The notes below the pieces were generated by a model. That model was given only the letters and a program-made list of their open reading frames with translations. It ran no database searches and was not told where the DNA came from. Below are positions 7,245-56,103 of a stretch of DNA of 64,000 nucleotides, piece by piece (positions within the stretch are counted from its first letter, which is position 1; every line of letters starts with the position of its first letter). The translations under genes were made by a program, and so were the position numbers. Location: assembly GCA_000004695.1 (NCBI GenBank), contig CM000155.2, positions 1,696,001 through 1,760,000 of the forward strand. The letters are read 5' to 3'. Source of the DNA: Dictyostelium discoideum. Lineage: Eukaryota.

Positions 7245-7274
7245 ATTATAAACAAAAGATTTTAAAAAAAAATT

Positions 7275-11100: not shown

Positions 11101-11494
11101 GAAATAATGATGGTTATTATCAATATGATGATGATGATGATGATGAAGAAGAAGATGATGATGATGAAGAAGAATATGAAGATGAAGATGAATACGAAGA
11201 TGATCAAGTAGAATTAAGAAGAAGAATGTATGGTAATAGATATAATGATAATGAATATACAGAACAAGATTCATCAGGCGAAGAATATGATGTAAATTCA
11301 CCACCAGAATATTATTATGATGAAGATCGTGGTGAATTTGTTCAACAATTCCCAAGTTCTATTCATCGTCGTAATAATAATAATATGAAAAAACAAAGAG
11401 CAAATTATAGTAATAATAATAACAATAGCAATAACAATAATAATCAAAAACAGCAACAACAGCAACAACAGCAACAACAGCAACAACAGCGACA

Positions 11495-11525
<31 letters not shown>

Positions 11526-11541
11526 AAAAAACAAAAACATC

Positions 11542-11611
<70 letters not shown>

Positions 11612-12600: not shown

Positions 12601-14848
<2,248 letters not shown>

Positions 14849-15824: not shown

Positions 15825-16189
15825 AATAAAGTAAAAATAAAATAAAGTAAAATAAAATAAAATTAAATAAAATAAAATAAAATAAAATAAATAAATTATT
15901 TATTTATTTTTTTTATTTTATTTTTTATTTTTACTTTATTATTATTATTTTTTCTATAACAAAATTAATTTTTTCAGTTTTTTAAAAAAAAAAAAAAAGA
16001 TTTGTTTTTTTTTTTTTCTCTTTTGGTAATTTAATTTTTTACTTTATTATTTTTTTTTTTTTTTTTTTAATTAATTATTTTGTTTTTCCTTTTCTCCAAA
16101 TATAAACTTTTTTATTTTTTTTGTTTTTTATAATTTTGTTTTACTTTTTCTATTATATATATTTTTTTTTTATTATCAAATATAACACA

Positions 16190-17578: not shown

Positions 17579-17801
17579 TTTATTTTTATTTAATAATAAC
17601 AACAACAATAACTTTAACAACAATAACTATAACAACAACAACAACAACAACAAATAGTAATTCAACCAAAAAAATGGTATTGTAATAGAATGATGAAATT
17701 TGAAAAGATCAACAAAAATGGGTTTTTAACTAATGATACACTACATATAAAGTTTAAAATTGAAGTTTTTAATTGGATTTTAACACCTTTTGAGACAGAT
17801 G

Positions 17802-17835
<34 letters not shown>

Positions 17836-18169
17836 TAAAAATAAAGGTAAAAAAAAAAAAAATAAAGAAAAAAATTTAAAAGTAAATAAAAAATAAAATA
17901 AAATTGCGGTATAGGCCAATCTTTGGAAATTAAAAAAAGTCAGAAATCTAGATTTTTTTTTTATGAATTATTTTAAAATGATTAATTTTTAAAAAAAAAG
18001 TTTTCCACATACACACGGTTGGAGCTTACAAAATTAGGTAAAGATATATCTAGAAAAAAAATAATAAAATAATAAAAAATAAAAAATACCAATAATATAA
18101 TTATTTTAATAATAATAAAAAAAAAAAAAAATAAAAAAAATAATAATAAAATAAAATTAATAACAAAGT

Positions 18170-20170
18170 ATTAAAAGTAAGAGATTTGGTTATTTAAAAT
18201 AATTACCAATATTGGAAAGCTATCATGTTTACGAATAATTTGACCATTATTATAGTATTGTGGCTCTCTATTTTGGTCTTTTATAGTATATATTTGATCA
18301 TGAACGGAACCTGGGAATCCCTCAGGATGTAGTAACAATAATCTGTATGATCTAGTGCATACCTCACAATGAAATTTGACCACATGACTTTGCTTTTACC
18401 AGAATAGTATTTTTTTTTTGGATTTGGTAATCAGTGGGAGTTTCAATAACAATAGAGGTAGATTCAGCAGCAATTGCACGATAAAGCACATTAGATATAG
18501 GATGTTTTAAAAAGCCAACTGATTCAACAAGTTTATCATATCTCTTTTCCATTTTTTCCTTGCATACAACTCAAAGTGAATGAATGGTTGACTATAGTGA
18601 TTTTGAAATGTTTTTGGACTAATACCAAAAGTAACACATATTTCATAAATTGGAAGATATTGTTTCCAATATAAGAGAGTCTAGCACAAAAAAAAATAAA
18701 AAATAAATAATGTTATTAATTAATTCATTTTATTTTTTACATTTTTTATTTTTTTTTTTTTTTGTTTATAATTTTTTTTTTTTTTTACATTTTGTTTAAT
18801 TTATGACTTGGTGTAATTTTACCAAATTATTTAATTTAATTAAATCTAATTTAATTTAATTTAATTTTTTTTTTTTTCATTTAATTTTAAAAAATGAGTA
18901 GTTTTTAATGGAACATATTATTGTCTAAAAATAGATATTTATTTTTAAAAATAATATTATTTTTTTTTTTCTATTCAAAATTAGAAATTTCCAGAAAATC
19001 TTAAAAAATACGTATTTCATTTTAAAAGTTAAGGTAATTTTGTTTTTTTATCTAAAAAAAAAAAACATATTATTGTAAAAAAGAATATGTATTTTTGGAA
19101 TAATAATATTATTTTAAAAATTTACACAAAAATCTTTTGTCTTTATGAACATTTTAAAATCAAAAATTAAATTAAATTAAATTAAATTAAATTAAATTAA
19201 ATTATATTAAATAGGTATAATTTTTTGACTTGTGGAAAAAAAAAATTATTATGTGAAGGGGTAAAAATTTTTACATAAAATTTAATTATGTTAATCGGGG
19301 TGTTAAATTTTTCTTTAAATTTTTTTTTTTAAGTTGTATTTTTTTGATTAAATAAATAAATTCATAATTATTTCCTTCTATTAATAAAAAAAAAAAAAAA
19401 AAAAAAATTCATAATTATCTCCTTCTATCAATAAAAAAAAAAAATAAATAAATTCATAATTATTTCCTTCTTTTAATAAAAAAAATGGTAAACTCTTGAC
19501 CAAGAAAAAAGCAAATGACTCAACCAAATTTAATGTTGTATTCTTTTGGATTAGAACCTGATATTATAGATAAATTATTAAATTTAATTAATGAAAATGA
19601 AGAACTTAAAGAAAAACGTATTAAAGATAAACATATAATTTGTGTGGGTGTTTAATATTAAAATAAAACTATAAAAAATAAATATAATAATAAAAATAAA
19701 AATAAAAATAAAAAATAAAAAATAAAAATAAATGTTGAAAATGAATAAATTAATAACATTATTTTTTTATTTTTTTTTTTGTGTTAGACTCTCTTGTGTT
19801 GGAAACAATATCTTCCAATTAATGAGATATGTGTTACTTTTGGTAATAGTCCGAAAACATTTCAAAATCACTATAGCCAAACCATTCATTCACTTTGAGT
19901 TGTATGCAAAGGAAATAATGGAAAAGAGATATGATAAACTTGTTGAATCAGTTGGCTTTTTAAAACATCCTATATCTAATGTGCTTTATCGTGCAATTGC
20001 TGCTGAATCTACCTCTATTGTTATTGAAACTCCCACTGATTACCAAATCCAAAAAAAATTACTATTCTGGTAAAAGCAAAAGTCATGTGGTTAAATTATT
20101 CGTAAACATGATAGCCTTCCAATCTTGAGTAATTATTTTAAATAACCAAATCACTTCCTCTTACCTTAAT
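18170..20170. repeat. Roughly 2-kb element-like structure with two long inverted repeats (about 18170-18680 and 19790-20170) around a central segment that carries its own internal direct repeats
   Basis: The reverse complement of 18380-18620 is nearly identical to 19790-20075; both encode MEKRYDKLVESVGFLKHPISNVLYRAIAAESTSIVIETPTDYQIQKK. The left arm holds an extra roughly 150 bp (encoding HCEVCTRSYRLLLLHPEGFPGSVHD...) bounded by a short ggt(c/t)aaat direct repeat and missing from the right arm. The central region has aatttaattt and aattaaatt arrays and a three-copy 45-bp tandem repeat at 19360-19480. The whole structure is flanked by the direct repeat (caa)n-atagtaattcaac at 17634-17668 and 20410-20440. 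Confidence 0.6.
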
Positions 20171-20699
20171 AATTTGTTATTAATTTTTATTTTATTATTA
20201 TTATTATTATTATTTTATTATTACAATAATTATATATTATTGGTATTTTTTATTTATAAAAATTAAAATCTGGGGCAATATAAAAAAAAAAAAAATAAAA
20301 AAAATAAAAAAAAAAAATGTGAAAATTAAAAAAATAAAAAAAAATAAAAATATTTACACCAACTTTTCATTTTTACATAAAATTTATAAAAAAAAAAAAC
20401 AAAAAAAAACAACAACAACAACAAATAGTAATTCAACAATATATTTTTTTTTATGTTTTTTTTTTTACATTTTCTTTTTGGCTTCACATTACTGTTTTTT
20501 TTTTTTTTTTTTAAAATTTTAATCAAACTATTTTTGTGCGATGTCAATTATTTCTAGATTTTTATCTCTTTTTTAGATTACTAAAACAAATATGATAAGA
20601 TTAAAATATTAAAAAAAAAAAATAAGGGGGAATTCAATATTAATTTATTTTTAAAAATGATTGTTTGTATATATACTATATTTTATTTTACTTAATTTT

Positions 20700-20835
20700 T
20701 TTTAAAATTTTTGGGGTTATAAATATATCTCTTATTAAAGATATTTTTAATAATTAAAAATCTCTTATTAAAGATATTTTTAATAATTAAAATTTTTGGG
20801 GTTATAAATATATCTCTTATTAAAGATATTTTTAA
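20700..20835. repeat. Minisatellite of about 55-bp units (ttttggggttataaatatatctcttattaaagatatttttaataattaaaa), two to three copies
   Basis: Read directly in the sequence. Confidence 0.8.
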
Positions 20836-21007
20836 TAACCAAACTCACAAAGATTAAAATTTACCAATCATTTTATAACCAAGACACTATCTTGATTTTT
20901 TTTTTTTTTTTATTTTTTTTTTTTTTTAAAAGTTGCTGTTTATCCATTTAATTTTTAATTATTTAATACTTTTTTTTTTTTTTTTTTTTCTTTATTCTTA
21001 CTAAATT

Positions 21008-21046
<39 letters not shown>

Positions 21047-21074
21047 TTATTTTTGTATAAAAAGTGAAATAAAA

Positions 21075-24000
21075 ATGATTGAAAGTCAAAGGGAATTTAA
21101 TTGTATTGGTGGTGATAATCAGAATGGTGTCGCAGTTATTGGTGTAGGTTTTAAAATCCCATTAGATCTAGAAAATTGTTTATCAAGTCCAAGTGAATTA
21201 TATTCAGCATTATTTAATGAATTTGATAGTGTAACAAAGAATACAAGTTCACGTTGGTCTGATAACTATTTTAAAAATGGTGATATTGTTAGTCTTAGTG
21301 CAGGTTTATTACCACTCAGAGAAATTAAATCATTTGATCCAACTTTTTTCGGTATTAATCCATCCGATGCAGATTTAATTGATCCTCAACAAAGATTATT
21401 ATTAAAATGTAACTTTTTTTTATTTTATTTTTATTTTTATTTTTTTATTATTAACAAATTTAATTAAATAAATATATTAGGTGTTTGGAATGCATTAGAA
21501 GATGGTGGTATTGACCCAATCAGTATTCGTTCATCAGATACTAGTGTCTACATTGGTTGTTCAACTATTGACTATTTTCTTTTAAATAGAAATCCTGTTG
21601 ATCCTCATAATCATGGTATTCAAACCGCAAGTTATTCAATTCCAAATAGAATATCATATTGCTTTGATTTTAGAGGTGAAAGTTTGTTTGTTGACACTGC
21701 ATGTTCATCATCACTAAATGCAGTTCATCTTGGTTACAATTCAATTATAAATTTAAAATCAAAATTATCAATTGTTGGTGGTTCCAATTTAATTTTAGGT
21801 ATGAATTATCTTTTTATTTATTTTTTTTTTTTTTTTTTTTTTGTACTATTATTAATATTATTATTAATATTATTATTATTATTTTTATTTTACTGACATA
21901 TATATATTTCCTAGATCCACAAAATAGTATTTTTTTTTCTAAACAACAGGTGAATGGTCCAAGTGGTAAATGTAATAGTTTTTCAGAAGAAGCAGATGGC
22001 TTTGTTCGTAGTGAGACAGTTGGTGTAGTAGTATTAAAGAATTTAAAAGATGCAATTAAAGATGGTGATAGAATTTATTGTGTAATTCAAGGTTCAAATT
22101 CAAATGTTGACGGAAATTATGAAAAATTAAATTATATTTCACCTTCAAAATTATCACAAGCTGAAAATATTACCAAAGCATTAAAATCAACAAATGGTGC
22201 GGTGAATGCATCTGATATTGATTATTTCGAATGTCACGGTACTGGTACACCAACTGGAGATCCAATCGAATTAGAAGGTATATCAATTGCATTAAATAGA
22301 ACTCAACAATCTACAACATTATCAAATCCACTTTTAATAGGTTCAATTAAATCAAATATTGGTCATGGTGAGGCAAGTAGTGGTATAGCCAGTTTAATTA
22401 AATGTTGTGTAATGTTTAAATATCGTCAATTTTTACCAAATATTAATTTCAAAACACCAAATCCATTAATCAAATTTAAAGAATGGAATTTAAAAGTTGT
22501 AACTGAACCAGTTCCATTCAATAATAATAAACAAACTATTATGGCAATTAATAATTTTGGTGTTTCTGGTAAGATTTTAATATAACAATAATAAGAGCAA
22601 AACAAGATAATCAAACTACTAATATTTACTATTTTTTATTTTTATTAAATAGGATCAAATTGTTGTATTATTTTATCAGAATATAAAAGTAATAACAACA
22701 ATAATAATGATTTTAAAGCAACAACACATTTAAAATCAAAGAAATTTATTATACCATTTTCATCAAATTCCTCAACATCATTAGACAATTATAAATCATT
22801 ACTTTCAAATGAAACAAATAATTTTCAAGATTTTGTTATTAAACAAATTAATAATAAATCAACATCATTAATTCAAAGATCAGTAATCATTGCAAGTAAT
22901 TGGAGTGAATTTAATGAGTCATCAAATGAAATTCAATCAAATATTAAAAAATCAATTATATCTAATATCACAATTAAAAAAAAGAATGCAGTTACAGTAT
23001 TTGTATTTTGTGGTCAAGGTTCGCAATATAATAAAATGGCATTATCATTATATGAAAATGAACACATTTTCAAATCAACAATGGATAAATTAGATAAAGA
23101 ACTATCCAAACACTATGGGTATTCAATTTTAGAAAAATTAAGATCAATTACAGATGAAGATTTAGTAACAATTCATCAACCAATTTTAGCAATTCCAGTT
23201 AATGTAATGGTTCAAGTATCTCTATATGAATTGTATAAACATTGGGGTATTAAATCAGATATTATGGTTGGTCATTCGTTTGGAGAAATCGCTTGCTCTT
23301 ATTGCTCTGGTATGGTTGATTTTAAAACATTATGTTATTTAACATACCACAGATCAGTAGCTCAGAATAAAACAATTGGATCAGGTAAAATGTTATCAAT
23401 TAATATTGGTGCTAAAGAATACTTGGATTCTTATTCAACTAAATATCCATCGGTAGAAATCGCATGTTATAATAGTGAAACATCAATCGTTATTGCAGGC
23501 AATGAAGAATTATTAAATGAAATTTCAAAAGATTTAAAATCAAAAGATATTTTTACAGCAATGTTACCATCATTATCAGCATTTCATACAACACACCAAT
23601 CAGTTATTAAAGATGATATTTGCTCATTGAATTTTAAATCGACATTATCAAAAATAACAGTATTTTCCACAGTCACATCTAATCAGTTTGGTATTAATAA
23701 TAATAATAATAATAATAATAATCAACTTAATTCAAATTACCTTTTTCAAAATGTTATTCAACCAGTTAAATTTAGTGAGACAATATCAAATATATATAAA
23801 TACATTGAATCAAATGATATGGGTAATGAAATAACATTTATTGAAATTGCACCACACCCAACATTACAATATTATTTAAATCAAATGAAGTCACAACAAT
23901 CAGAATACTTTAATAATGGTGAAAAGATTTCAATCTATTCAGCATGTAATAAAAAGAAGAATGATTATAATGAATTTTTAAAAACAATTTCAACATTGTT

Positions 24001-26504
24001 TGTAAATGGTTATAATAATATTAATTTTAAATCTCAAATTATTAATAATAATAATAATGATAATAATAATAATTTTAATTTACCATTATATCAATGGGAT
24101 GATAATGAATATTATAAAATTCATCCAACATGGAAAAAAGCAAATAAAAATGGACCATCAATTAATCATCTTGGAAATCTAAATGATTCTTCAATTAAAT
24201 CATTTAAAACCTATATTAATACAAGAAAACCACAATTCCAATGGTTAAAAGGTCATTCTTTAAAAGGAAAAGTTGTATTCCCTGGTATGGGTTATATTTC
24301 AAATTTACTCTCAGTTTATAATATGAACCAAGATATTACAATTAATGAAATTCAATTCAAAAGTGCATTTATTTTAGTCGATGGTGTTAATAACTGTTTA
24401 GAGACATCGATTGTACCATTAACAAAGAATGAATTCAATATTAAATTTCATTTTAAAGATTTAAAAACAAATAAATGGGTATTATGTGCAAATGCTAATT
24501 ATAGTTTATTTAAACATAATGATAATAATGATAAACTTGATATTGAAAAATTAAAATCTAATTGTAATTATACAATAATTTCAAAAGATGAATTATATAA
24601 TAATATTAGAGCTAAAAGTGGATTGATTTATAAAGGTTTATTTCAAGGTGTTAAAGAAGCTTTCATTGGTAATAGATGTTCGTTAACAGTTTTATCATTA
24701 AATGAAATTGAAAACCAACAAGAGTTTAAACATTTATTAGAGAATAGAAACTTCAATTCATTATTTAATACAGCAATTTTAGATTCATGTTTACATGGTT
24801 CACTTCACTCAAAAGAACAATCTCAAATTTATTTTGACAAATGTGAAGGTTTTAAATATTATTCAAACAATATTAATTTAGCAACTTCGAAAAGAAATGA
24901 GTACAAAGAGATTAATGTTTATATTGAAACGAATCCCGTGATCAATTCAACAGTTATTGTAAGTTTAAAAATTATGTTACCAGATGGAACATTATTAATT
25001 GAAATTCAAAAAGTAGTTTGTAAATCATCAATACCAATTATTGATAGTACCTCAGTTATTCAACCATCACCAAAAGATTTACACACACCATATTATCAAC
25101 CAAAAAACTCATTAATTAAACCACCACAATCATTTAAACATTTACATTGTATGAAAGAATTTGCAAGTATAGAATCTGATAATAGAGAAATGGTGTATAT
25201 GTCAATTTATCATTTAATTTTTAAAGCCATCAATGCTAGATCTCCAACAAAAATCAATTTAGAATCCCTTGAAAATTTAACATTAGATCAATTTAAAGAA
25301 TTAATAAAAGACAGTGCAGCAAATATTCAACGTTCCAATCAATTTATATATGAATGTTTAAAACTATACCATACAAATCATTCAAATTATAAAAAAAATC
25401 AAATTAAAGATTTTATTAAAGAATGTGAAGATTTTAATGGATATAATCAAATAATTTTTAAAACAATTAAAATCTATGCAAAATCATTATTCCCATTACC
25501 AGATGACGATCCATTTACAGATACAATTCAATCATTGTTTGAAGATGATCAATTAGAAAACGTTTACATCCATTTAAAACACCTTTATCCAGTAAACAAT
25601 TTATTAAGTGAAATCGTTTTTCAATCAATTAAACCAATAATAAATCAAACATCAACATTTAGAATTTTAGAAATAGGAGCAGGTTATGGTACAATCTCAC
25701 AATTAATATTTGACAAACTCGAACAACTATTAGCAGATAATTTCACATCATCAAGAATTGATATAGAATATACATTTACTGATATTTCAAATACTTTCTT
25801 ACCAAGAGCAAAAGAGAGATATTCAAAATATAAAAGATTCAACATAATTTACAAACTCTTAGATTTAGAACTTCCTTTAACAGAGGGAATTCAAGATTTT
25901 AGACCATTATATTATGATATAGTTGTTATGTCAAATGTTTTACATGTTGTAAAAGATATTAATTTCAGTACAAATGAAATCTATAAAGTTTTAAAACAAA
26001 ATGGTCAATTAATATTTGTAGAACCAACATATAAAAATTTATATCTTGATACTATATTTGGCATATTTCCACAAGTAAGTAGTTATTAATATTTATTATT
26101 ATCTATTTATTAATCTAATATATTTTTTTTTGTAAGTGGTGGTCATTTAATGATGATATTAGAACTGATAGATGTTGTCTTGAACCTTCAAAATGGTTTG
26201 AATTTTTAGAAACAATTAATTTTAAAGATACAATTATTTTGGGTCAAGATAACAAAGAAATCTTGAAAAATGTTGAAAATTCAATAATATTAGTACAAAC
26301 TAGAAAACCATCACAACTTGAATTATCGATAAATAATTCACCATCAACCAACCAATTCAAATCTTTTGAAAACATAATATTATATACTGATGATAACCAA
26401 CAACCAAATGATTGTAGTGAAATTATCGATTTATTAAAATCATTAGAACTACCAATTAAAATAATTAACAATATAGACCAATTTAATCAAATTATTAAAA
26501 CACA

Positions 26505-26571
<67 letters not shown>

Positions 26572-29454
26572 AATAACAATTTAATAATATTTTTAAAATC
26601 AGTTAATCAATTAAATACTAATAATTATAAAGATATTACATTTGAATATGTTCAAATCAATCAAATTTTAGTAAAATTAGAACTTGAAGAAAATTATAAA
26701 TTATTATTAATAACTAATAATTCTCAATCAAGTAATTATTTATCAAATTCATTAATTGGTACATCAAGATATTTATTTGCAGATATAGTATCATCAAAAT
26801 TAGATATTATTACAATTGATTTCGATACCGTTTCAATTAAGAACCATCAAAATGTTATATCAGTTATTAACCATTTATTAGATTCAAAAGATAATAGTGA
26901 AAGAGAATATTATATTATTAATAATGAAATTAATATTGAAAGATATAAAAATGAATCAAATATTAAACATCAATTAAAATCAAAAACCTTTCAAGAAAAT
27001 AAAGATGAATTAATGGTACAATTAGACTCAAATTTAGAATATAGATTAAAATCAAAATCAAAACAAGAATTAAAATCAACTCATGTTGAAATTCAAGTTA
27101 AAGCAATTGGAATTAATTATAAAGATTATGCAACTTACAGTGGTTTAATCGATTCAATCATAGAAATTGATAAAGATAAAGAAAAGGATGAAAATTATGA
27201 CCAAAATTATCCAAGTATTGGTAATGATTTTAGTGGTGTAATTACAAGAATTGGTAGTGATGTTAGAAAGTTTAAAGTTGGTGATGAAGTATGTGGTTTA
27301 GCACCTAAAACATCCGCTTCACATATTATCACTGAAGAAGGTTATCTTTGTAAGAAACCATCAAACATTAGTCACTCTGAAGCTGCATCATCAGTAACAG
27401 TTTACACAACATCATTTCAAAGTATTTATAGCATTGGTGATTTAAAGAAAAATGAAACCATATTAATTCATTCAGGTAGCGGTGGTATTGGTTTATCTGC
27501 ATTGGAAATATTAAAATGGAAAAATCATCAAGGTTACATATTTGCAACTGTAGGCTCTGAAGATAAAGTTAAATATTTAACAGATACCTATGGTTCATTC
27601 ATAACTGGTATATATTCATCCAGAGATAAGGACTATCAAGATCAAATTAAAGAGAAATTAAAATCATTAGGTTGCGATATCGATCATCAAGGAGTAGATC
27701 TAATATTGAATACACTATCAGTAGAGTACATGGATTCAAATTTTAAATGTTTAAATCAAAAAGGTAGATGTATTGATCTTTCAATCACTCATTTAACTCC
27801 ATTTGATTATATGGATTATAATAAATTCAAATTCAATGTTTCCTATGGTAATATTGAACTTGTTGTATTACCATCCAAAATTATTAAAGATCATTTAAAA
27901 AAGATGCTTAAAGCCTTTTCATTAGGTAGTTTAAGATTTATACCTATTGTTGAATTTTCAAATTTGAATATAAGAAATGCAGTCGAATACATTAATCAAC
28001 GTAAACATATTGGTAAAATTGTAGTAAAGAATGATGTTGATTTTATAAATAAATTATTTATTGAACAACAACAACAACAAAACTCTGTTGAAAATAATGA
28101 AATTTTAATGAAAGATAAATATGATATTTCAAATTTAGAACTTGGTAAAAATATATTATTAACTGGTCAAACAGGTATTATTTTAACTATATTAAAATGG
28201 TTATATAAACATTCAAATAATTCAATTGAAAATATTATTATAATTTCCAAATCAAAATTAAAATGGGAATTAGAATTATTTATAAATGAATCAACTAATA
28301 ATAGAATTAAAATTCATTATAAACAAGCTGACGTTGGTAATAATAATGAATTAAATCAGTGCTTTGAAGAATTAAGATTACGACATTCAATTGAAGATAT
28401 TAATTCAATTTTCCATTTTGCATTTATTAATGATATTGGTCAATTTGAAGATGTTAATATGAATCGTATGGATATCGCTCATCATGCTAAAGCAATTGGT
28501 TCACTTAATTTACATAACCAATCTATTGAACGTAAATGGAATATTAAACAATTTGTATTGGCATCTTCGGCGTTATCAGTATTTGGTGGAGACAACCAAT
28601 GTTGTTATATCAGTGCTTGTTCAGTTTTAGACTCCTTATCAAAGTATAGAAAATCAATTGGTCTTCCATCTTTATCAATTAACTTTGGTGGTGTAACATC
28701 AACTGGTTTCGTATCTCGTAGTGGTGCTGTCGAAGCTAACCTTGAAAGTTCTATTATCAATTTAATTACACCACAATCATTAATTTCTTCATTGGATTTA
28801 TTTATTCAAAACTCTCAAACCTTTTCAAACTATACTCATTTCAATTTCATATATGATAATATAGAATCATATTCACTCAACAGAATGTTATTTAAATTTG
28901 ACTATTTAATCAACCAACATTCCTCATTAGTTTCAAATAAAAGATTAGGTGGAATAAATGAAAATAATAATATTGGTGATTTATTAGTATCAAAAATTGG
29001 TGAACTTTTATCAATTGAGCCATCAAAATTGAATTTAGATTTTAGATTAGTTGGTAAGTTTTGTTTTTTTTTATTTATAATTTTTATTTTATTATTACTA
29101 ATCTTTTCTAAAAATTAATAAATAAAATTAGATTATGGTTTAGATTCATTGGTTATCGTTCAACTTAAAAATTTTATTGATAAACAATTCCAACCTCATT
29201 TAATTTCAATTTTACAATTACAAAATAATAAAATCTCAACAACAATAGAAATTATAATCAAAGGATATAATAATAATCAAAATAAAAAAATTAAAAATGA
29301 ACAATCAAATGACATTCCAAGTGTAGTTCAAAAAGAAACTATCAAAGATAACAATGAAAATAAAGACGATATAAAAATCGATATGGATGATAAAAAAGAA
29401 AATTTAAAAGGTAAAAAAGAGAATATTGATGACAAAAAAGAAAATAACAATTAG
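21075..29454 (+). CDS. Type I iterative, highly reducing polyketide synthase with domain order KS-AT-DH-CMeT-ER-KR-ACP (copy 1, apparently intact)
   Basis: Six exons are proposed: 21075..21408, 21481..21798, 21915..22568, 22652..26074, 26137..29053, 29132..29454. Domain motifs seen: KS ([10 protein letters not shown]|[25 protein letters not shown]|[30 protein letters not shown]); AT (GHSFGE); CMeT ([12 protein letters not shown]); ER ([13 protein letters not shown]); KR ([10 protein letters not shown]); ACP ([12 protein letters not shown]). Intron donors are GTAACT, GTATGA, GTAAGA and GTAAGT, all with AG acceptors. Confidence 0.85.
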
Positions 29455-30128
29455 CCATAATTTCAAAATCGTTAGTTTTATAAAGTTTTTGTATTCAAAA
29501 CAATAATTAAAAAATAAAGTGATAATAATTTTACAAAAAATATTGTTACAAAAAAACAAAGATTAACCAAAAAAATTGATTTAATTAAATGGTTTTATTA
29601 TTTATTTTTTTTTTTTTAAAATTTAATTAATTTATAAAATTATACTTCATTTTTTAAAAAGATAAATTAGTGGGGGGACAAATTAATGGTCATTTTCTTT
29701 TTTTAAAATTCCTTATTTTCTCTTATTATTACTATATAGAGTTTAAATATTTTTTTATTTTTTTTTTTTTTTTTTTTTATTAAACCAAAATAGGGGCAAA
29801 AAAAACAAAAATACAAAAAAATTATTATTTTTTTTTTTTTTTATTTGCCATTTTCACCACAAAATAACATTACTACATAAAAATAAATAAATAAATAATT
29901 TTTTTTTTTTTTTATTTCAAAAACCGTTCTTGTGTTAAATCGAAATGGGCTTGTAGAATTTAAAAATGATAGTAAGTTTATTACAATATTGGGTGTTTGA
30001 AATTTTTTTTTTTTTTTCTATTTATTTTATTTTTAATTTAATGTTTTAATACCTTTTTTTTTATTTTTTTTTTAATTAGTTTATTTATTTATTTATTATT
30101 TTAGTATATCATATTAAGTGGAATACAA

Positions 30129-33100
30129 ATGATTAAAAGTCAAAGAGAATTTAATTGCATTTGCGGTGATAATCAAAATGGTGTCGCAGTTATTGGTGTA
30201 GGTTTTAAAATACCATCAGATCAAGAGAATTGTTTATCAAGTCCAAGTGAATTATATTCCGCATTATTGAATGAATTTGATGGTGTAAAAAATGATACAA
30301 GTACGCGTTGGTCTGATAACTATTTTAAAAATGGTGATATTGTTAGTAATAGTGCAGGTTTATTACCACTCAAAGAAATTAAATCATTTGATCCAACTTT
30401 TTTCGGTATTAATCCATCAGATACTGATTTAATTGATCCTCAACAAAGATTATTATTAAAATGTAACTTTTTTTTATTTTATTTTTTATTTTTATTTTTT
30501 AATGTAAATTATTATTAACAATTTTAATTTATTTAAAAAATTATATATATATTATTATTATTAGGTGTTTGGAATGCATTAGAAGATGGTGGTATTGACC
30601 CAATCAGTATTCGTTCATCAGATACTAGTGTCTACATTGGTTGTTCGAATATCGATTATTATCTTTTAAATAGAAATCTTATTGATCCTCATAATCATGG
30701 TATTCAAACTGCAGGTTATTCAATTCCAAATAGAATATCATATTGCTTTGATTTTAGAGGTGAAAGTTTGTTTGTTGACACTGCATGTTCATCATCACTA
30801 AATGCAGTTCATCTTGGTTACAATTCAATTTTAAATTCAAAATCAAAATTATCAATTGTTGGTGGCTCAAATTTAATTTTAGGTATGAATTATCTTTTTA
30901 TTTTTATTCGGTTATTATAATTTATTATAATTTATATTATTATTATTATTATTATTTTATTTTATTTTTTATAAATACTAACATATATATAATTTCTAGA
31001 TTCACAAAATAGTATTTTTTTTTTCTAAACAACAGGTGAATGGTCCAAGTGGTAAATGTAATAGTTTTTCAGAAGAAGCAGATGGCTTTGTTCGTAGTGA
31101 AACAGTTGGTGCGATAGTATTAAAGAATTTAAAAGATGCAATTAAAGATGGCGATAGAATTTATTGTGTAATTCAAGGTTCAAATTCAAATGTTGACGGA
31201 AATTATGAAAAATTAAATTATATTTCACCTTCAAAATTATCACAAGCTGAAAATATTACCAAAGCATTAAAATCAACAAATGGTACAGTCAATGCATCTG
31301 ATATTGATTATTTCGAATGTCACGGTACTGGTACACCAATCGGAGATCCAATTGAATTAGAAGGTATATCAATTGCATTAAATAGAACTGAACAATCTAC
31401 AACATTATCAAATCCACTTTTAATAGGTTCAATTAAATCAAATATTGGTCATTGTGAAGCAAGTAGTGGTATGGCCAGTTTAATTAAATGTTGTGTAATG
31501 TTTAAATATCGTCAATTTTTACCAAATATTAATTTCAAAACACCAAATCCATTAATCAAATTTAAAGAATGGAATTTAAAAGTTGTAACTGAACCAGTTC
31601 CATTCAATAATAATAAACAAACTATTATGGCAATTAATAATTTTGGTGTTTCTGGTAAGATTTTATTATAAAAATAATAAGAACAAAAATAAATCATCTA
31701 ATATTTACTATTGTTTATTTTTATTAAATAGGATCAAATTGTTGAATTATTTTATCAGAATATAAAAATAATAATAATAATAATAATAACAATAACAATA
31801 ATGATTTTAAAGCAACAACAAATTTAAAATCAAAAAAATTTATTATACCATTTTCACCAAATTCATCAACATCATTAGACAATTATAAATCATTACTTTC
31901 AAATTTATCAAATGAAACAAATAATTTTCAAAATTTTGTTATTAAACAAATTAATAATAAATCAACATCATTAAATCAAAGATCAGTAATCATTGCAAGT
32001 AATTGGAGTGAATTTAATGAGTCATCAAATGAAATTCAATCAAATATTAAAAAATCAATTATATCTAATATCACAATTAAAAAAAAGAATGCAGTTACAG
32101 TATTTGTATTTTGTGGTCAAGGTTCACAATATAATAAAATGGTATTATCGTTATACGAAAATGAACAAGTTTTCAAATCAACAATGGATGAATTAGATAA
32201 AGAATTATCCAAACACTATGGGTATTCAATTTTAGAAAAATTAAGATCAATTACAGATAATGATTTAGTAACAATTCATCAACCAATTTTAGCAATTCCA
32301 GTTAATGTAATGGTTCAAGTATCTCTATATGAATTGTATAAACATTGGGGTATTAAATCAGATATTATGGTTGGTCATTCGTTTGGAGAAATCGCTTGCT
32401 CCTATTGCTCTGGTATGGTTGATTTTAAAACATTATGTTATTTAACATACCACAGATCAGTAGCTCAGAATAAAACAATTGGATCAGGTAAAATGTTATC
32501 AATTAATATTGGTGCTAAAGAATACTTGGATTCTGATTCAACTAAATATCCATCGGTAGAAATCGCATGTTATAATAGTGAAACATCAATCGTTATTGCA
32601 GGTAATGAAGAATTATTAAATGAAATTTCAAAAGATTTAAAATCAAAAGATATTTTTACATCAATGTTACCATCATTATCAGCATTTCATACAACACACC
32701 AATCAGTTATTAAAGATGATATTTGCTCATTGAATTTTAAATCAACATTATCAAAAATAGCAGTATTTTCCACAGTCACATCAAATCAGTTTGGTATTAA
32801 TAATAATAATAATAATCAATTTAATTCAAATTACCTTTTTCAAAATGTTATTCAACCAGTTAAATTTAGTGAAACAATATCAAATATATATAAATACATT
32901 GAATCAAACGATATGGGTAATGAAATTATATTTATTGAAATTGCACCACACCAAACTTTACAATATTATTTAAATCAAATGAAATCACAACAATCAGAAT
33001 ACTTTAATAATGGTGAAAAGATTTCAATCTATTCAGTATGTAATAAAAAGAAAAATGATTATAATGAATTTTTAAAAACAATTTCAACATTGTTTGTAAA

Positions 33101-33134
33101 TGGATATAATAATATTAATTTTAAATCTCAAATT

Positions 33135-33170
<36 letters not shown>

Positions 33171-36100
33171 TTTAATTTACCATTATATCAATGGGATGAT
33201 AATGAATATTATAAAATTCATCCAACATGGAAAAAAGCAAATAAAAATGGACCATCAATTAATCATCTTGGAAATCTAAATGATTCTTCAATTAAATCAT
33301 TTAAAACCTATATTAATACAAGAAAACCACAATTCCAATGGTTAAAAGGTCATTCTTTAAAAGGAAAAGTTGTATTCCCTGGTATGGGTTATATTTCAAA
33401 TTTACTCTCAGTTTATAATATGAACCAAGATATTACAATTAATGAAATTCAATTTAAAAGTGCATTTATTTTAGTCAATGGTGTCAATAACTGTTTAGAG
33501 ACATCAATTATACCATTAACAAAGAATGAATTCAATATTAAATTTCATTTCAAAGATTTAAAAACAAATAAATGGGTATTATGTGCAAATGCAAACTATA
33601 GTTTATTTAAACATAATCAAAATAATGATAATAAATTTGATATTGAAAAATTAAAATCTAATTGTAATTATACAATAATTTCAAAAGATGAATTATATAA
33701 TAATATTAGAGCGAAATGTAGATTAACCTTTAAAGGTTTATTTCAAGGTGTTAAAGAAGCTTTCATTGGTAATAGATGTTCATTAACAGTTTTATCATTA
33801 AATGAAATTGAAAACCAACAAGAGTTTAAACATTTATTAGAGAATAGAAACTTTAATTCATTATTCAATACAGCAATTTTAGATTCATGTTTACATGGTT
33901 CACTTCACTCAAATGAACAAGCTCAATTTTATTTTGACAAATGTGAAGGTTTTAAATATTATTCAAACAATATTAATTTAGCAACTTCAAAAATAGATGA
34001 ATATAAAGAGATTTATGTTTATAATGAAACGAATCCCGTGATCAATTCAACACTTTTTGCAAGTTTAAAAATTATGTTACCAGATGGAACATTATTAATT
34101 GAAATTCAAAAAGTAGTTTTCAAATCATCAATAACAATTATTGATAGTACCTCAGTTATTCAACCATCACCAAAAGATTTACACACACCATATTATCAAC
34201 CAAAAGATTCATTAATTAAACCACCACAATCATTTAAACATTTACATTGTATGAAAGAATTTACAAGTATGGAATCTGATAATATAGAAATGCTTAATAT
34301 GTCAATTTATCATTTAATGTTTAGAGTTATCAATGCTAGATCTCCAACAAAAATCAATTTAGAATCCCTTGAAAATTTAACATTAGATCAATTTAAAGAG
34401 TTATTAAAAGACTGTGCAGCAAATATTCAACGTTCCAATCAATTTATATATGAATGTTTAAAACTATACCATACAAATTATTCAAATTATAAAATAAATG
34501 AACTTGAAGATTTTATAAAACAAAGTGAAGATTTTAATGGATATAATCAAATAATTTTTAAAGCAATTAAAATCTATGCAAAATTATTCCCATTACCAGA
34601 TGACGATCCATTTACAGATACAATTCAATCATTGTTTAAAGATGATCAATTAGAAAGTGTATACTTCCATTCAAAACACCTTTATCCAGTAAACAATTTA
34701 TTAAGTGAAATCGTTTTTCAATCAATTAAACCAATAATAAATCAAACATCAACATTTAGAATTTTAGAAATAGGAGCAGGTTATGGTTCAATCTCACAAT
34801 TAATATTTGATAAACTCGAACAACTTTTAGCAGATAATTTCACATCATCAAGAATTGATATAGAATATACATTTACTGATATTTCAAATACTTTCTTATC
34901 AAAAGCAAAAGAGAGATATTCAAAATATAAAAGATTCAATATAATTTACAAATTATTAGATTTAGAACTTCCTTTAACAGAAGGTTTTCAAGATTTTAAA
35001 CCAAAATATTATGATATAGTTGTTATGTCAATGGTTTTACATGTTGTAAAAGATATTAATTTCAGTACAAATGAAATATATAAAGTTTTAAAACAAAATG
35101 GTCAATTAATATTTGTAGAACCAACATATAAAAATTTATATATTGATACTATATTGGGTATATTCCCTCAAGTAAGTAGTTTTTTTAATATTTATTATTA
35201 TCTTTTATTAAAATTATTTTTATTTTTATTTTTTAGTGGTGGTCATTTAATGATGATATTAGAACTGATAGATGTTGTCTTGAACCTTCAAAATGGTTTG
35301 AATTTTTAGAAACAATTAATTTTAAAGATACAATTATTTTAGGTCAAGATAATAAAGAAATCTTGAAAAATTTTGAAAATCCAATAATATTAGTACAAAC
35401 TAGAAAACCATCACAACTTGAATTATCGATAAATAATTCACCATCAATCAAGCAATTTAAATCTTTTGAAAACATAATATTATATACTGATGATAATCAA
35501 CAACGAAATGATTGTAGTGAAATTATCGATTTATTAAAATCATTTGAACTACCAATTAAAATAATTAACAAAATAAATCAATTTAAACAATTTATTAAAT
35601 CACAATCTAATAAAAATAATAATACTATTAATAACAACTTAATAATATTTTTGAAATCAGTTAATCAATTAAATATTAATAATTATGAAGATATTACATT
35701 CGAATATGTTCAAATCAATCAAATTTTAGTAAAATTAGAACTTGAAGAAAATTATAAATTAATATTATTAACTAATAATTCTCAATCAAGTAATTATTTA
35801 TCAATTCATTAATTGGTACATCAAGATATTTATTTGCAGATATAGTCTCATTGAAATTAGATATTATTTCAATTGATTTCGATACAGTTTCAATTAAGAA
35901 CCATCAAAATGTTATATCAGTTATTAACCATTTATTAGATTCAAAAGATAATAGTGAAAGAGAATATTATATTATTAATAATGAAATTAATATTGAAAGA
36001 TATAAAAATGAATCAAATATTAAACATCAATTAAAATCAAAAACCTTTCAAGAAAATAAAGATGAATTAATTGTACAATTAGACTCAAATTTAGAATATA

Positions 36101-38513
36101 GATTAAAATCAAAATCAAAACAAGAATTAAAATCAACTCATGTTGAAATACAAGTTAAAGCAATTGGAATTAATTATAAAGACTATGCAACTTACAGTGG
36201 TTTAATCGATTCAATCATAGAAATTGATAAAGATAAAGAAAAGGATGAAAATTATGACCCAAATTACCCAAGTATTGGTAATGATTTTAGTGGTATAATT
36301 ACAAGAATTGGTAATGATGTTAGAAAGTTTAAAGTTGGTGATGAAGTATGTGGCTTAGCACCTAAAACATCTGCCTCACATATTATCATTGAAGAATTTC
36401 ATCTTTGTAAGAAACCATCAAACATAAGTCATTCTGAAGCTGCATCATCAGTAACAGTTTACACAACATCATTTCAAAGTATTTATAGCATTGGTGATTT
36501 AAAGAAAAATGAAACCATATTAATTCATTCAGGTAGCGGTGGTATTGGTTTATCCGCATTGGAAATATTAAAATGGAAAAATCATCAAGGTTACATATTT
36601 GCGACTGTAGGCTCTGAAGAAAAAGTTAAATATTTAACAGATACCTATGGTTCATTCATAACTGGTATCTATTCATCCAGAGATAAGAACTATCAAGATC
36701 AAATAAAAGAGAAATTAAAATCATTAGGTTGCGATATCGATCATCAAGGAGTAGATCTAATATTGAATACATTATCAGTAGAATATATGGATTCAAATTT
36801 CAAATGTTAAAATCAAAAAGGTAGATGTATTGATCTTTCAATCACTCATTTAACTCCATTTGATTATATGGATTATAATAAATTCAAATTCAATGTTTCC
36901 TATGGTAATATTGAACTTGTTGTATTACCATCCAAAATTATTAAATATCATTTAAAAAAGATGCTCAAATCCTTTTCATCAGGTAGTTTAAGATTTATAC
37001 CAATTGTAGAATTTTCAAATTTGAATATAAGAAATGCAGTCGAATACATTAATCAACGTAAACATATTGGTAAAATTGTAGTAAAGAATGATGTTGATTT
37101 TATAAATAAATTATTTATTGAACAACAACAACAACAACAACAAAACTCTGTTGAAAATAATGAAATTTTAATGAAAGATAAATATGATATTTCAAATTTA
37201 GAACTTGGTAAAAATATATTATTAACTGGTCAAACAGGTATTATTTTAACTATATTAAAATGGTTATATAAACATTCAAATAATTCAATTGAAAATATTA
37301 TTATAATTTCTAAGTCAAAATTAAAATGGGAATTAGAATTATTTATAAATGAATCAACTAATAATAGAATCAAAATTCATTATAAACAAGCTGACGTTGG
37401 TAATAATAATGAATTAAATCAGTGCTTTGAAGAATTAAGATTACGACATTCAATTGAAGATATTAATTCAATTTTCCATTTTGCATTTATTAATGATATT
37501 AGTCAATTTGAAGATGTTAATATGAATCGTATGGATATCGCTCATCATGCTAAAGCAATTGGTTCACTTAATTTACATAACCAATCTATTGAACGTAAAT
37601 GGAATATTAAAAAATTTGTATTGGCATCTTCGGCAACATCAGTATTTGGTGAAGAAAACCAATGTTGTTATATCAGTGCTTGTTCAGTTTTAGACTCCTT
37701 ATCAAAGTATAGAAAATCAATTTGTCTTCCATCTTTATCAATTAACTTTGGTGGTGTAACATCAACTGGTTTCGTATCTCGTAGTGATGCTGTCGAAGCT
37801 AACCTTGAAAGTTCTATTATCAATTTAATTACACCACAATCATTAATTTCTTCATTGGATTTATTTATTCAAAATTCTCAAACCTTTTCAAACTATTGTC
37901 ATTTCAATTTCCTATATGAAAATATAGAATCATATTCACTCAACAGAATGTTATTTAAATTTGACTATTTAATCAACCAACATTCTTCATTAGTTTCAAA
38001 TAAAAGATTAGGTGGAATAAATGAAAATAATAATATTGGTGATTTATTAGTATCAAAAATTGGTGAACTTTTATCAATTGAACCATCAAAATTGAATTTA
38101 GATTAGTTGGTAAGTTCTGTATTTTTAATATATTTATTTATAATTTTTATTTTATTACTAATCTTTCTAAAAATTAATTAAAAATTAGATTATGGTTTAG
38201 ATTCATTGGTTATCGTTCAACTTAAAAATTTTATTGATAAACAATTCCAACCTCATTTAATTTCAATTTTACAATTACAAAATAATAAAATCTCAAAAAT
38301 AATTCAAATTATAATCAAAGGATATAATAATAATCAAATTAAAAAAATTTGAAATGAACAATCAAATGAAATACCAAGTGTAGTTCAAAACGAAAATGCA
38401 GAAAATAGATGATAACAAAGAAAACTAAAGAAGATAAAATGAAAAAAATGAAAATAAAAATGGGATAATAGACAAACAAAAAGAAAAATTATAAAGATAT
38501 AAAAAAAGAATAA
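30129..38513 (+). pseudogene. Tandem duplicate (copy 2) of the upstream PKS, with several frame-disrupting lesions; likely a pseudogene
   Basis: It is near-identical to copy 1 through KS-AT-DH-CMeT (30129..35309). Lesions: T10 instead of T9 in exon 3 (about 31006-31025), consistent with the ORF track restarting at 31036; a 1-nt deletion near 35800 that gives the stop ending ORF 35363..35812; a 1-nt deletion near 36805 (tgtttaaat becomes tgttaaaat, a stop); a 7-nt deletion near 38100; and a divergent last exon with stops (38186-38513). The ORF track shows the region split into 35363..35812, 35851..36810 and 36868..38106. Confidence 0.7.
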
Positions 38514-38753
38514 CTAGCCAGAATTTCAAAATTTTTAGTTTTACTATTTAAAAATTTCTTTATTTCACAAAAGACCACCACCAATAAAGTAGAAAAAAAT
38601 AATTTCTTCTTTATATAAATTTATTTTTTTTATTTTTTTTTATTTTTTTTATTTTTTTTTTTTTTATTAATACAAATAATACCAAATTATTATCATTGTA
38701 TAAAAAAAAAAAAAAATTAAAAAAAAAAATAATCTTAATTGTAAAAATGTGGG

Positions 38754-39918: not shown

Positions 39919-41725
39919 TTAATTTTCGGTCGGTGGTCTTGGTCTTCTTGTTGGTGGTTTTCTCTTTGAAGCAATATGTGGTCTACTAGCAGTAACGTGA
40001 GTTAATTCAGCAGAATCACTTTCTGGTGCATCTGATAATGAACCTGGTACACTTGGACCAGATGGTTTTTTAACAGGTGTTTTAGTTGGGGTTGAAGTGG
40101 TTGGAGTTGATCTTGGAGCAACAACAGGTTTTGATTTAAGTGGTGTAACATCTTTAGTTGGAGTGACTGGTTCTGGTTCTGGTTCTGGTGCTACTGGTTT
40201 TCTGATTGGTGGCGCACCTCCACCCATATTTCTAGCGATAGCCTCGGCGACAGCAGAGTTTGCTGATAATTTAGCACCAAATTTAGAGACTGGTTGAGTT
40301 GGTTTTGGTGTAGTTGAAACTGGTGGTGTAGTTGTAGTTGAAACTGGTGGTGGATTTGCAGGTTTAAGAGGAGCAGCAGCACCAGTTCTTGGGGCAGTGA
40401 CAGGTGGAACATTGGTGGTTGGAGTTGGTTGTGGAGTGATCGGTGGTGAGGTTGGTTGTGGTGATCTTGTTGGTACAGGACTATCTGGAATTGGGGTGGC
40501 ACCACTAGCTTCATTTTGAGCTTGAGATTCTTCCAATATTAAATCCTTGAAAACACTATCCAAGCCAATGGTAATTTTCTCGTAGGTATAATCAGAGGCA
40601 ATATCCAAGGCACTAATGAAACACTCATGAGCACGAGAACTTAATTCAGCACCAGCACCTTTAACGAGGGTTGAATGAATTTGTTGTTCATCGACATCCT
40701 TTGAACCATATTGAATGGTTGTGGCCAGACGTTTAATGGTTGGACCATCCATAGATTGGAAAGTATTTTGCATACTCTCCAAGATTTGTTGAGTCATTTC
40801 ATTCTTTTTAGCATTAATTACATCGTTAACAACTTGAACGAAATCCTTTAACTTTTGATTGAGTTCCATTTCCAAAGAGGCATGAATTGATTCCTTAATG
40901 AGATGAATGCCACCAATCACTTTTTCAGTACTTTCAGCATCTTTAACTATGAGAATGTTGTTTGGATCTGTTACTTTTCTACCGATACTTTTGATTTTAT
41001 TTAAAAGTTTTTCAACTCCTTGTTGTTGGCCACTTGCCAAGAAGGAAAGATTAGTAGCACCAATACTATTACCACCATTACCTTCGAATGCACGAGTTGG
41101 TGATTGATTTCTATTGATACATGAATCGATTTCCTTCCAAATTTGTTGGAATTTTGGTTCACGATGACATTGAATAATATCATTCAAAGGTGTTGGCATA
41201 TTCTTGAGGGTTAAATTTCTCTCTAAACCCACTTGAAAACCAGCGAAACCAATGGCAGTTGTTAAATTATCATCCCAAATCAAAGTATGTAAAGTTTTAT
41301 TGGTTTGCAATGCTTTACCCAATCCAATGGCACCTTTTGGACCCATTTGGTGACCAGAAATATCCAATTCCAATAAACTTGAATTGGTTGCCAATGAATA
41401 AATCAATGAAAGAATATCGGCTTTCAAAGGTGATTTACTATTACCAACTGTCATATGAAGTGTTTCCAATGGACATTCAGACTCTAACAATGATATAACA
41501 CTTTCAATTGCTGATGGTCTAGATTTGGTTTTAGATTGTTTAAAATTACCATTCAAAATTAATTTCTTTATTGTACTATTACCAACAAATCCATCACAAA
41601 TTACTGATACACCTTCATCACCAAAATCATTTTCTGATACATCTAAATAAATAACATTTGATAATTTATCTGTTGCTAATGATGCTAACATTCTTGCACC
41701 TGCAATACCTAAATCATTATTCTTT

Positions 41726-44803: not shown

Positions 44804-44887
<84 letters not shown>

Positions 44888-49774: not shown

Positions 49775-50759
<985 letters not shown>

Positions 50760-52395: not shown

Positions 52396-56103
<3,708 letters not shown>

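Follow-up and report, generated by a model that had tools for sequence, protein, structure and literature searches.

A tandem pair of highly reducing polyketide synthase genes in Dictyostelium discoideum with a downstream copy that appears to be a recently disabled pseudogene

The type I iterative polyketide synthase (PKS) family of D. discoideum is put at about 40-45 pks genes, five catalogued pseudogenes among them, by Zucko et al. 2007 as cited in PMC3188802 and PMC9618038; lineage-specific PKS expansions (PMC3188802) and the five D. discoideum PKS pseudogenes (PMC9618038) are thus already on record. Published paralogue pairs include pks5/pks7, with 88% nucleotide identity, and Pks16/Pks17, with 96%. 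Judged by sequence, the solved structure closest to the gene described here is D. discoideum Pks16 (PDB 9nju; E=9e-156 over the AT-DH region), which has the same dimeric mammalian-FAS-type domain order but is a separate paralogue that has been linked to fatty acid synthesis, whereas our gene has a C-methyltransferase domain whose SAM motif is intact. The fungal highly reducing PKS (HR-PKS) LovB (PDB 7cpx) presents the same KS-AT-DH-CMeT-ER-KR-ACP iterative architecture; however, its sequence similarity is distant only (E=6.7e-36), and LovB, whose own ER is inactive, carries a condensation domain at its C-terminus and depends on the trans-ER LovC, in contrast to the intact ER NADPH motif found here.

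Architecture of the tandem pair

Within the window, a 64,000-nt stretch of D. discoideum DNA, blastn self-comparison and MAFFT global alignment revealed two PKS copies that lie head-to-tail and are colinear (Table 1), with start codons 9054 nt apart and ~105 nt of 5' flank included in the duplicated segment, in agreement with the layout and period given in a preliminary description of this DNA. The copies are ~96% identical at aligned bases, and the aligned units contain 8111 matching and 492 mismatched positions along with 30 indel events, with roughly 320 differences between the copies in exons; for the first 5 kb, for which more than 95% identity had been claimed, the value is 95.6% at aligned bases and 92.5% if gap columns are counted. 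The proposed six-exon model of copy 1 with ~7.97 kb of coding sequence likewise stands, being open throughout with zero internal stops and with conserved motifs at each exon join, and an independent annotation of a near-identical AX2-like assembly also calls a 2655-aa gene at this position. As had been claimed, the exon-intron structure is the same in the two copies, with five common introns and all ten GT/AG splice sites kept in copy 2. One candidate revision of the model, in which the T run of the KS exon would be intronic through an alternative acceptor (AACAACAG/G), was rejected, and the run was taken as exonic because it encodes a conserved KS stretch and the Pfam KS match continues through it.

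Pfam domain calls returned the order KS-AT-DH-CMeT-ER-KR-ACP in both copies, as described before, with a single module only in the copy 1 model, the arrangement of a FAS-like type I iterative HR-PKS; on these domain calls, the gene is a predicted iterative highly reducing type I PKS. The KS Cys-His-His residues (DTACSSS, HGTGT, NIGH) are present in copy 1, in copy 2 and in copy 2 of a syntenic locus compared below (L001), while the AT GHSxG serine, the DH HxxxGxxxxP motif, the ER and KR NADPH motifs and the ACP GLDSL serine occur in both window copies. All catalytic motifs of copy 2 are identical or conservative with respect to those of copy 1.

Protein homology searches did not find a near-identical named reference protein, the matches being to fragments in other strains and to paralogues less closely related, and a literature search for a Dictyostelium paper on pks40-43 found none. 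Among the D. discoideum PKS genes, pks42 is listed with a product of 2655 aa and no protein entry exists for pks43, so that the pair may correspond to pks42 and pks43, the latter as a pseudogene.

With respect to its neighbours, the locus had been described as part of a Dictyostelium PKS cluster, a view we reject, as Pfam annotation of all large ORFs in the window recovers these two PKS copies only. A cytochrome P450 gene, considered as a possible tailoring gene of a biosynthetic gene cluster, lies ~10 kb downstream, separated from the pair by three unrelated genes, and its synteny is conserved in two other loci (L001 and L002). The window also harbors a DUF1697 ORF, whose exact-sequence match leads to a third locus (L003).

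Table 1. Coordinates in the window of the tandem PKS pair, of the lesions in copy 2 and of neighbouring features
Feature	Position	Strand	Remarks
Duplication unit 1, strongly alignable part	20970..29338	+	Begins ~105 nt 5' of the ATG, ends with the ACP core
Duplication unit 2, colinear with unit 1	30011..38395	+	blastn, MAFFT
Alignable blocks, unit 1 vs unit 2	20970-26545 vs 30011-35647; 26550-29338 vs 35608-38395	
Start codons	21075 (copy 1); 30129 (copy 2)	+	
Copy 1, predicted intact HR-PKS gene	21075..29454	+	Six exons, stop included, 7968 nt, 2655 aa
Copy 1 exons	21075-21408, 21481-21798, 21915-22568, 22653-26074, 26137-29053, 29132-29454	+	Frame-preserving GT..AG junctions
Copy 2, putative unprocessed pseudogene	30129..38517	+	Projection via alignment; Pfam domains as in copy 1
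Copy 2 projected exons	30129-30462, 30565-30882, 31000-31654, 31732-35171, 35237-38109, 38189-38517	+	Alignment
Lesion 1, T10 vs T9	31015..31024	+	Exon 3 frameshift within KS, TAA directly after; T9 in copy 1 and L001 copy 2
Lesion 2, nonsense TGT>TGA, codon 440	31743..31745	+	KS C-terminal GSNCCIIL motif; TGT in L001 copy 2
Lesion 3, 1-nt deletion AAA>AA	35802..35804	+	Exon 5 frameshift; AAA in the other four sequences
Lesion 4, nonsense TTA>TAA, codon 2115	36808..36810	+	ER region; TTA in the other four sequences
Lesion 5, loss of 7 nt	38096..38103	+	One TTTAGAT unit of a tandem pair; both units in the other four sequences
Premature TGA, codon 2603 of 2655	38350..38352	+	AAA in all others; directly after the ACP core
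Contiguous ORFs within copy 2	36868-38106; 32139-35309	+	
Largest gene-conversion tract	27433..28524 (copy 1); about 36490-37587 (copy 2)	+	16 consecutive within-genome sites
Unconverted orthology tract, example	26059..26253	+	12 consecutive sites: copy 1 with L001 copy 1, copy 2 with L001 copy 2
Cytochrome P450 gene	47987-49652		~10 kb downstream of the pair
Neighbouring ORFs	39919-41691 (-), 43944-45944 (-), 1908-3365		

Lesions in copy 2 and the timing of inactivation

Copy 2 was reported to carry at least five independent disabling lesions, and we did find at least five, namely three frameshifts and two internal nonsense codons, with the first stop of the raw spliced translation at residue 226. 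Their nature and distribution differ in part from what had been described: 1) the T10-versus-T9 change in the KS exon is real but lies at the position given in Table 1; 2) of two reported 1-nt deletions, that in exon 5 was recovered, but the change near 36805 is a T>A substitution that creates a stop; 3) the 7-nt deletion is the loss of a repeat unit 14 nt upstream of the donor site of exon 5, with a frameshift that leaves the ACP exon out of frame; 4) the ACP exon is not scrambled, as the ACP core is intact (Pfam E=3.5e-20 in copy 2 vs. 1.2e-20 in copy 1, with an identical GLDSL serine motif) and only the K/N/D-rich C-terminal tail diverges, after about 38395; and 5) a concentration in the 3' half does not strictly hold, as two of the lesions fall in the first 1.6 kb. 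The TGT>TGA change at codon 440 is a second nonsense codon that had been overlooked. The premature TGA near the 3' end would cut off the low-complexity C-terminal tail, and no ATG ORF exists between lesions 3 and 4. We infer from these sequence changes that the function of copy 2 would be abolished. The central reading of the preliminary description, a tandem duplicate of a type I HR-PKS gene with a downstream copy in decay, is supported.

The selection analysis points to a late onset of this decay. On the terminal branches, dN/dS was in the range 0.25-0.30 for each of the two copies, with no difference between them (Fisher p=0.67), and neutrality on the copy 2 branch was rejected (p=1.7e-10); the relaxed constraint (dN/dS approaching 1) that we sought by dN/dS on this branch was not detected. 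In addition, internal nonsense codons in copy 2 numbered 2, as opposed to the 13-16 expected if the whole branch had been neutral. We read the equality of dN/dS between the copies as a sign that inactivation was probably very recent, and not as a sign of function. The description of copy 2 as caught mid-decay therefore holds insofar as the copy appears to be decaying, but the low dN/dS, the few nonsense codons and the intact motifs would place it at the very start of that process.

History of the pair and alternative readings

We compared the window with three syntenic loci: L001, with two copies, L002, and the AX2-like and near-identical L003. The L001 locus, with flanks ~94% identical to those of the window, represents the one outgroup lineage carrying both copies, and its copy 1 covers the 3' 5.2 kb alone. 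Every lesion of copy 2 in the window is private with respect to L001 copy 1, L001 copy 2 and L002, and L001 copy 2 carries lesions of its own that differ from these. Of the quartet-informative sites, 54 supported orthology, 52 grouped copies within a genome and 5 supported the other topology, and the sites were clustered along the alignment (24 runs vs. 53.9 expected; runs test, P<5e-5). The paralogues differed by 10.2% where tracts showed orthology and by 2.4% where they showed conversion, a contrast exaggerated because the tracts were defined by the same site patterns, while divergence between lineages was ~5%. On these site patterns, the copies are a mosaic in which some tracts are orthologous and others gene-converted, conversion having clearly occurred after the lineage split, and the high overall identity of the pair is due in part to this conversion.

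The history that we favor, with a probability of roughly 85%, is an old tandem duplication followed by gene conversion and a very recent loss of copy 2, copy 1 remaining intact. More specifically, a ~9.05-kb segment with one six-exon HR-PKS gene would have been duplicated in tandem in an ancestor common to the D. discoideum clade, at a time when the NC4/AX lineage and that of a tropical isolate had yet to separate; repeated conversion since then would have produced a mosaic of ~10%- and ~2.4%-diverged tracts with a mean identity of ~96%; both copies would have been under purifying selection for nearly all that time; and copy 2 in the window lineage, presumably the NC4-derived lab lineage, would have taken its two nonsense mutations, three frameshifts and premature tail stop very recently. 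The presumed outcome is an unprocessed pseudogene with splice sites and motifs intact beside an intact 2655-aa gene. We infer this order of events from the comparison of the loci.

More speculative are the ideas that copy 2, as an adjacent partner free to mutate and still subject to conversion, acts as a reservoir of variation for copy 1, akin to the donor-reservoir model put forward for tgrB/C in these genomes (PMC12745789), or that there is recurrent selection for losing the polyketide, which the separate losses of function in the AX lineage, in the tropical isolate and in a cryptic sister species could reflect; we consider both doubtful. It is also unlikely that copy 2, broken as a synthase, is kept for a residual role, whether by donating sequence in conversion or by giving rise to a truncated product from an open 1187-codon AT-DH-MT stretch that persists at 31746-35306. 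Conversion after the lineage split, whichever way it ran, private substitutions in copy 2 devoid of signs of relaxed constraint, the length of this open stretch and the precedent of the tgr loci would be in keeping with such a role, but the low dN/dS of copy 2 is fully explained by recent inactivation. Moreover, other lineages show either heavier damage to the second copy or just a remnant of the locus, which speaks against any conserved need for copy 2.

As for the age of the duplication, the ~96% identity of the copies might be taken to mean that they arose recently and independently in each lineage, and both the 52 sites that group copies within each genome and the near equality of overall paralogue (4.3%) and orthologue (4.5%) divergence are compatible with this. 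However, the 54 orthology sites, as compared to 5 for the third topology, cluster where the paralogues differ by ~10%, and in both the window and L001 the copies lie head-to-tail at one syntenic position and are separated by a similar spacer, so that a recent origin seems decidedly improbable. Because the pair is common to a lineage diverged by ~5-6% and its unconverted tracts are ~10% diverged between copies, the duplication is best read as old, predating the split from the tropical D. discoideum isolate.

The lesions of copy 2 are read from one assembly, because the independent same-strain locus (L003) ends within copy 1. Over the 20.6 kb that the window shares with that essentially same-strain assembly, homopolymers agree at 52 of 52 sites of 8-11 nt and 26 of 26 sites of 12-15 nt, and only three base differences were found, all in microsatellite or A-rich low-complexity tracts. 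That copy 2 is instead a second functional PKS with lesions due to sequencing or assembly errors, the alternative entertained in the preliminary description for homopolymers, would accord with the T9/T10 difference, with intact catalytic motifs and splice sites and with a dN/dS indistinguishable from that of intact copy 1, as unrelaxed values are also expected of a functional copy whose lesions are artefacts or strain-private polymorphisms; but it is very unlikely indeed, since it requires five independent errors in 8.4 kb, the two stop-creating substitutions (31745 and 36809) and the 7-nt loss are not of homopolymer type, copy 1 has zero lesions at the same composition, and the two assemblies show zero discordance at 78 homopolymers (8-15 nt).

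Place of the pair in the PKS family

When tandem duplicates evolve in concert through gene conversion and one of them is later lost, the course is known as birth-and-death evolution. The pair matches it without a difference in kind, showing a mosaic of converted and unconverted tracts, the later disabling of one copy and an independent disabling in a sister lineage. Similarly, we see no categorical difference from the other D. discoideum PKS genes, which are likewise AT-rich, encode a FAS-like single module, contain a small number of short introns and include neighbouring paralogues that are nearly identical as well as stop-interrupted pseudogenes. The pair therefore fits the known turnover of this family, and the kind of finding is not new; expansions and pseudogenes being already recorded (PMC3188802, PMC9618038), knowledge of the family is unchanged by it.

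There are practical consequences, in that PKS inventories should count copy 2 as a pseudogene, guide RNAs and read mapping directed at copy 1 must reckon with a 96%-identical neighbour, and automated annotations of wild isolates, which split or patch decaying copies, give rise to spurious "proteins". For the biology of the family, the locus offers a clear example of PKS repertoire turnover, in which a duplicate appears to have been kept, patchily homogenised and then lost independently in different lineages.

The tandem PKS pair and its gene models

Comparison of the window with itself revealed that the two highly reducing type I polyketide synthase (PKS) genes, copy 1 upstream and copy 2 downstream, are colinear and head-to-tail over two blocks of 93.8% (gaps included) and 96.2% identity. 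A global MAFFT alignment of the copies (8111 matches, 492 mismatches, 30 indel events) bore out the same colinearity, as had been claimed in the preliminary description, with ATGs at 21075 and 30129 and a spacing of 9054 nt. The KS-AT-DH-CMeT-ER-KR-ACP assignment agreed with Pfam calls on each copy, which returned an identical series comprising ketoacyl-synt N and C, KAsynt_C_assoc, Acyl_transf_1, PKS_DH_N, Methyltransf_12, ADH_N/ADH_zinc_N_2 (ER), KR and ACP_SdgA_C. Beyond these two copies, no other PKS was found within the window. The sequence has a G+C content of 20-25%, which is typical of Dictyostelium.

To model copy 1, we enumerated frame-preserving GT..AG introns between stop-free segments; at all five junctions, one solution restored a conserved motif (RLLLKC/VWNAL, SNLIL/[10 protein letters not shown], NFGVS/GSNCCIIL, GIFPQ/WWSFN and DFRLV/DYGLDSL). 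The resulting CDS of 7968 nt (2655 aa), in six exons and devoid of internal stops, matches the six-exon gene of about 7.97 kb described previously, and a 2655-aa gene with the same start has been called independently in the annotation of a near-identical assembly (L003). Projection of this model through the alignment showed that copy 2 has kept every donor and acceptor, in keeping with the proposal of a common exon-intron structure.

Coordinates of features in the window
Feature	Position	Strand	Description
Copy 1 exons	21075-21408, 21481-21798, 21915-22568, 22653-26074, 26137-29053, 29132-29454		six exons
Self-comparison, first block	20970-26545 vs 30011-35647		93.8% identity
Self-comparison, second block	26550-29338 vs 35608-38395		96.2% identity
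Lesion i, copy 2	31015-31024		T10 vs T9; frameshift in the KS region encoding [12 protein letters not shown], with TAA immediately after
Lesion ii, copy 2	31743-45		TGT>TGA; nonsense in KS GSNCCIIL motif
Lesion iii, copy 2	35802		one A lost (AAA>AA); exon 5 frameshift
Lesion iv, copy 2	36808-10		TTA>TAA; nonsense, by substitution
Lesion v, copy 2	38096		one of two tandem TTTAGAT units lost; frameshift shortly before exon 5 donor
Lesion vi, copy 2	38350-52		premature TGA directly past ACP core
Direct repeats	3556-3762, 6754-6960		207 nt, 98.6% identical
tRNA-Lys(UUU) gene	7274-7348	-	about 300 nt from repeat-bracketed element
Inverted repeat	18077-18803 / 19653-20255		431/445 nt (90.8%) plus 170-nt extension (83.6%)
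TPR39/Iml2-like gene	43944-46262	-	single exon in L001 and L002
Cytochrome P450	47987-49652	+	two ORF pieces, about 10 kb downstream of PKS pair
AAC/CAA-type arrays	11400-11611, 12937-13865, 50423-50640, 53703-54030, 60635-60901		long trinucleotide arrays in large ORFs

Disabling lesions in copy 2

The raw spliced product of copy 2 stops at residue 226. That disabling lesions are present was correctly recognized, but the catalogue had to be amended: lesion ii had been overlooked, the supposed 1-nt deletion near 36805 is in fact lesion iv, and the ACP exon, which had been described as scrambled, retains a core of ~95% identity (Pfam E=3.5e-20) with GLDSL kept, its divergence being confined to a low-complexity tail. 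There are strong, if indirect, grounds to regard the lesions, read in one assembly, as genuine, since three of five are not of the homopolymer type, copy 1 has none, and homopolymers in the 20.6-kb overlap of the window with L003 agree in 52 of 52 runs of 8-11 nt and 26 of 26 runs of 12-15 nt. The L003 locus (GCA_054883475.1), reached via the DUF1697 neighbour, is 99.7% identical to 5227-25837 of the window; it spans 4.8 kb of copy 1, where the two sequences are identical. Differences are restricted to long homopolymers and microsatellites, with all homopolymer discordances at runs of ≥16 nt or in an adjacent A-rich tract.

Age of the duplication and timing of inactivation

Proteins P0001 and P0002 from homology search led to two further syntenic loci. 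L001 (GCA_054859385.1, a 'D. discoideum' isolate; flanks ~94% identical) carries both copies, while L002 (GCA_054859205.1, 'D. cf. discoideum'; flanks ~92.5% identical) holds only a 3' remnant (MT-ER-KR-ACP) and lacks ~9.4 kb of window sequence upstream of it (about 15973-25400). The source assemblies, built from Nanopore plus Illumina reads, include AX2, tropical D. discoideum isolates and possible cryptic sister species (Holland et al. 2025; PMC12745789), from which we infer that the window is of the NC4-derived lab lineage (AX4 or AX2), L003 is AX2 and L001 a tropical isolate, probably CR116C. Homology searches yielded no protein above 95% identity to either copy, yet L003 and L001 do carry called full-length copy 1 orthologues (2655 and 2635 aa); the search seems not to expose the nearest relatives of this locus, so that the lack of named matches is uninformative on annotation status.

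In quartet site counts over the 5.2 kb with all four copies (two window, two L001), 54 informative sites grouped the copies by position (orthology), 52 grouped them within each genome and 5 supported the third topology, with the first two classes strongly clustered (24 runs vs. 53.9 expected, P<5e-5). Paralogue divergence in the orthology tracts was 10.2% for the window pair and 11.4% for the L001 pair vs. about 5% between lineages; the duplication is therefore clearly older than the lineage split. In the conversion tracts, the corresponding values were 2.4% and 3.2%, with about 4.7% between lineages; gene conversion has homogenized patches in both lineages after the split. L002 falls outside the four copies as an outgroup (7.5-8% divergence).

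In a five-way alignment, every copy 2 lesion was private, with both L001 copies and L002 in the intact state. Based on private single-nucleotide codon changes per terminal branch against Nei-Gojobori site counts, dN/dS was 0.25-0.30 on the branches of both copy 1 and copy 2, 0.22 for L001 copy 1 and 0.23-0.27 for L001 copy 2; neutrality of copy 2 was rejected (p=1.7e-10), and selection did not differ between copies 1 and 2 (Fisher p=0.67). Because 6.5% of possible single-base changes in the PKS CDS create stops, 13-16 nonsense codons would be expected on a fully neutral copy 2 branch vs. the two internal ones observed, and all catalytic motifs of copy 2 are intact. As judged by these three features, copy 2 was a constrained, presumably functional gene through most of its past, disabled only recently; 'early decay' fits it better than the 'mid-decay' proposed initially.

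Both related loci are damaged as well. L001 copy 2, annotated as three fragments (1197, 1118 and 134 aa), is interrupted by nonsense codons at 297 and 1271; it has also lost 85 nt, which shifts the frame, and a further single nucleotide, and an in-frame deletion of 159 nt takes out the DH active-site motif. In L001 copy 1, codon 1239 is an in-frame TAA (L001 867-869) that lies within a cluster of substitutions (VIQPSP>VN*PLS), despite the annotation of this copy as a 2635-aa gene, which may have been spliced around the stop; the L001 lineage may lack any intact PKS copy at this locus. The L002 remnant, with two nonsense codons, a 69-nt insertion and no fewer than five 1-nt deletions, is annotated as a 1288-aa protein (L002 10001-14526) despite this damage.

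Genomic neighbourhood and the PKS family

Upstream of the PKS pair lie an S28 peptidase, a retroelement beside tRNA-Lys, DUF1697 and a TRAF/MATH gene, and after it a small membrane-protein gene, a CARMIL-like LRR gene, a TPR39-like gene, cytochrome P450, a RAD24-like gene and an ABC-transporter fragment. The P450, whose synteny is kept in L001 and L002, is a possible tailoring enzyme for the PKS product, but three unrelated genes separate it from the pair. The direct repeats flank ~3.2 kb of relatively G+C-rich sequence, in which the AX2-like annotation calls a minus-strand reverse-transcriptase (RVT_1) gene; this element (3556-6960) resembles the TRE retrotransposons of Dictyostelium, which target tRNA genes. 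Each arm of the inverted repeat directly upstream of copy 1 contains a small 107-aa gene in that annotation (L003 12889-13270, minus; 14233-14791, plus); the ORF run against Pfam had no match. The TPR39/Iml2-like gene starts MSIIPNEINNA in L001 and L002; in the window, a poly-A/Lys run precedes the equivalent RSFFPNEINNA and 106 codons pass without an in-frame ATG, possibly because the start codon was lost, an exon further upstream went unrecognized or the neighbouring homopolymer differs in length. The trinucleotide arrays, typical Dictyostelium poly-Asn/Gln coding repeats, cross-match one another on both strands, and two are of unequal length in the window and L003.

Among solved structures, D. 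discoideum Pks16 (9nju, E=9e-156) comes closest, with fungal LovB next. The pair may be pks42 and pks43 (pseudogene). The 40-45 PKS genes described for D. discoideum include five pseudogenes broken by stop codons (PMC9618038); the literature also describes the very similar paralogue pairs pks5/pks7 (88%) and Pks16/17 (96%), and lineage-specific expansion of the family is already on record (PMC3188802). The tandem pair fits this picture and is already known in kind. The initial finding is real and its interpretation, aside from the lesion catalogue, essentially right; our analysis adds that the duplication is old, that gene conversion has made the copies a mosaic, that inactivation is very recent and that sister lineages show decay of their own, arisen independently.
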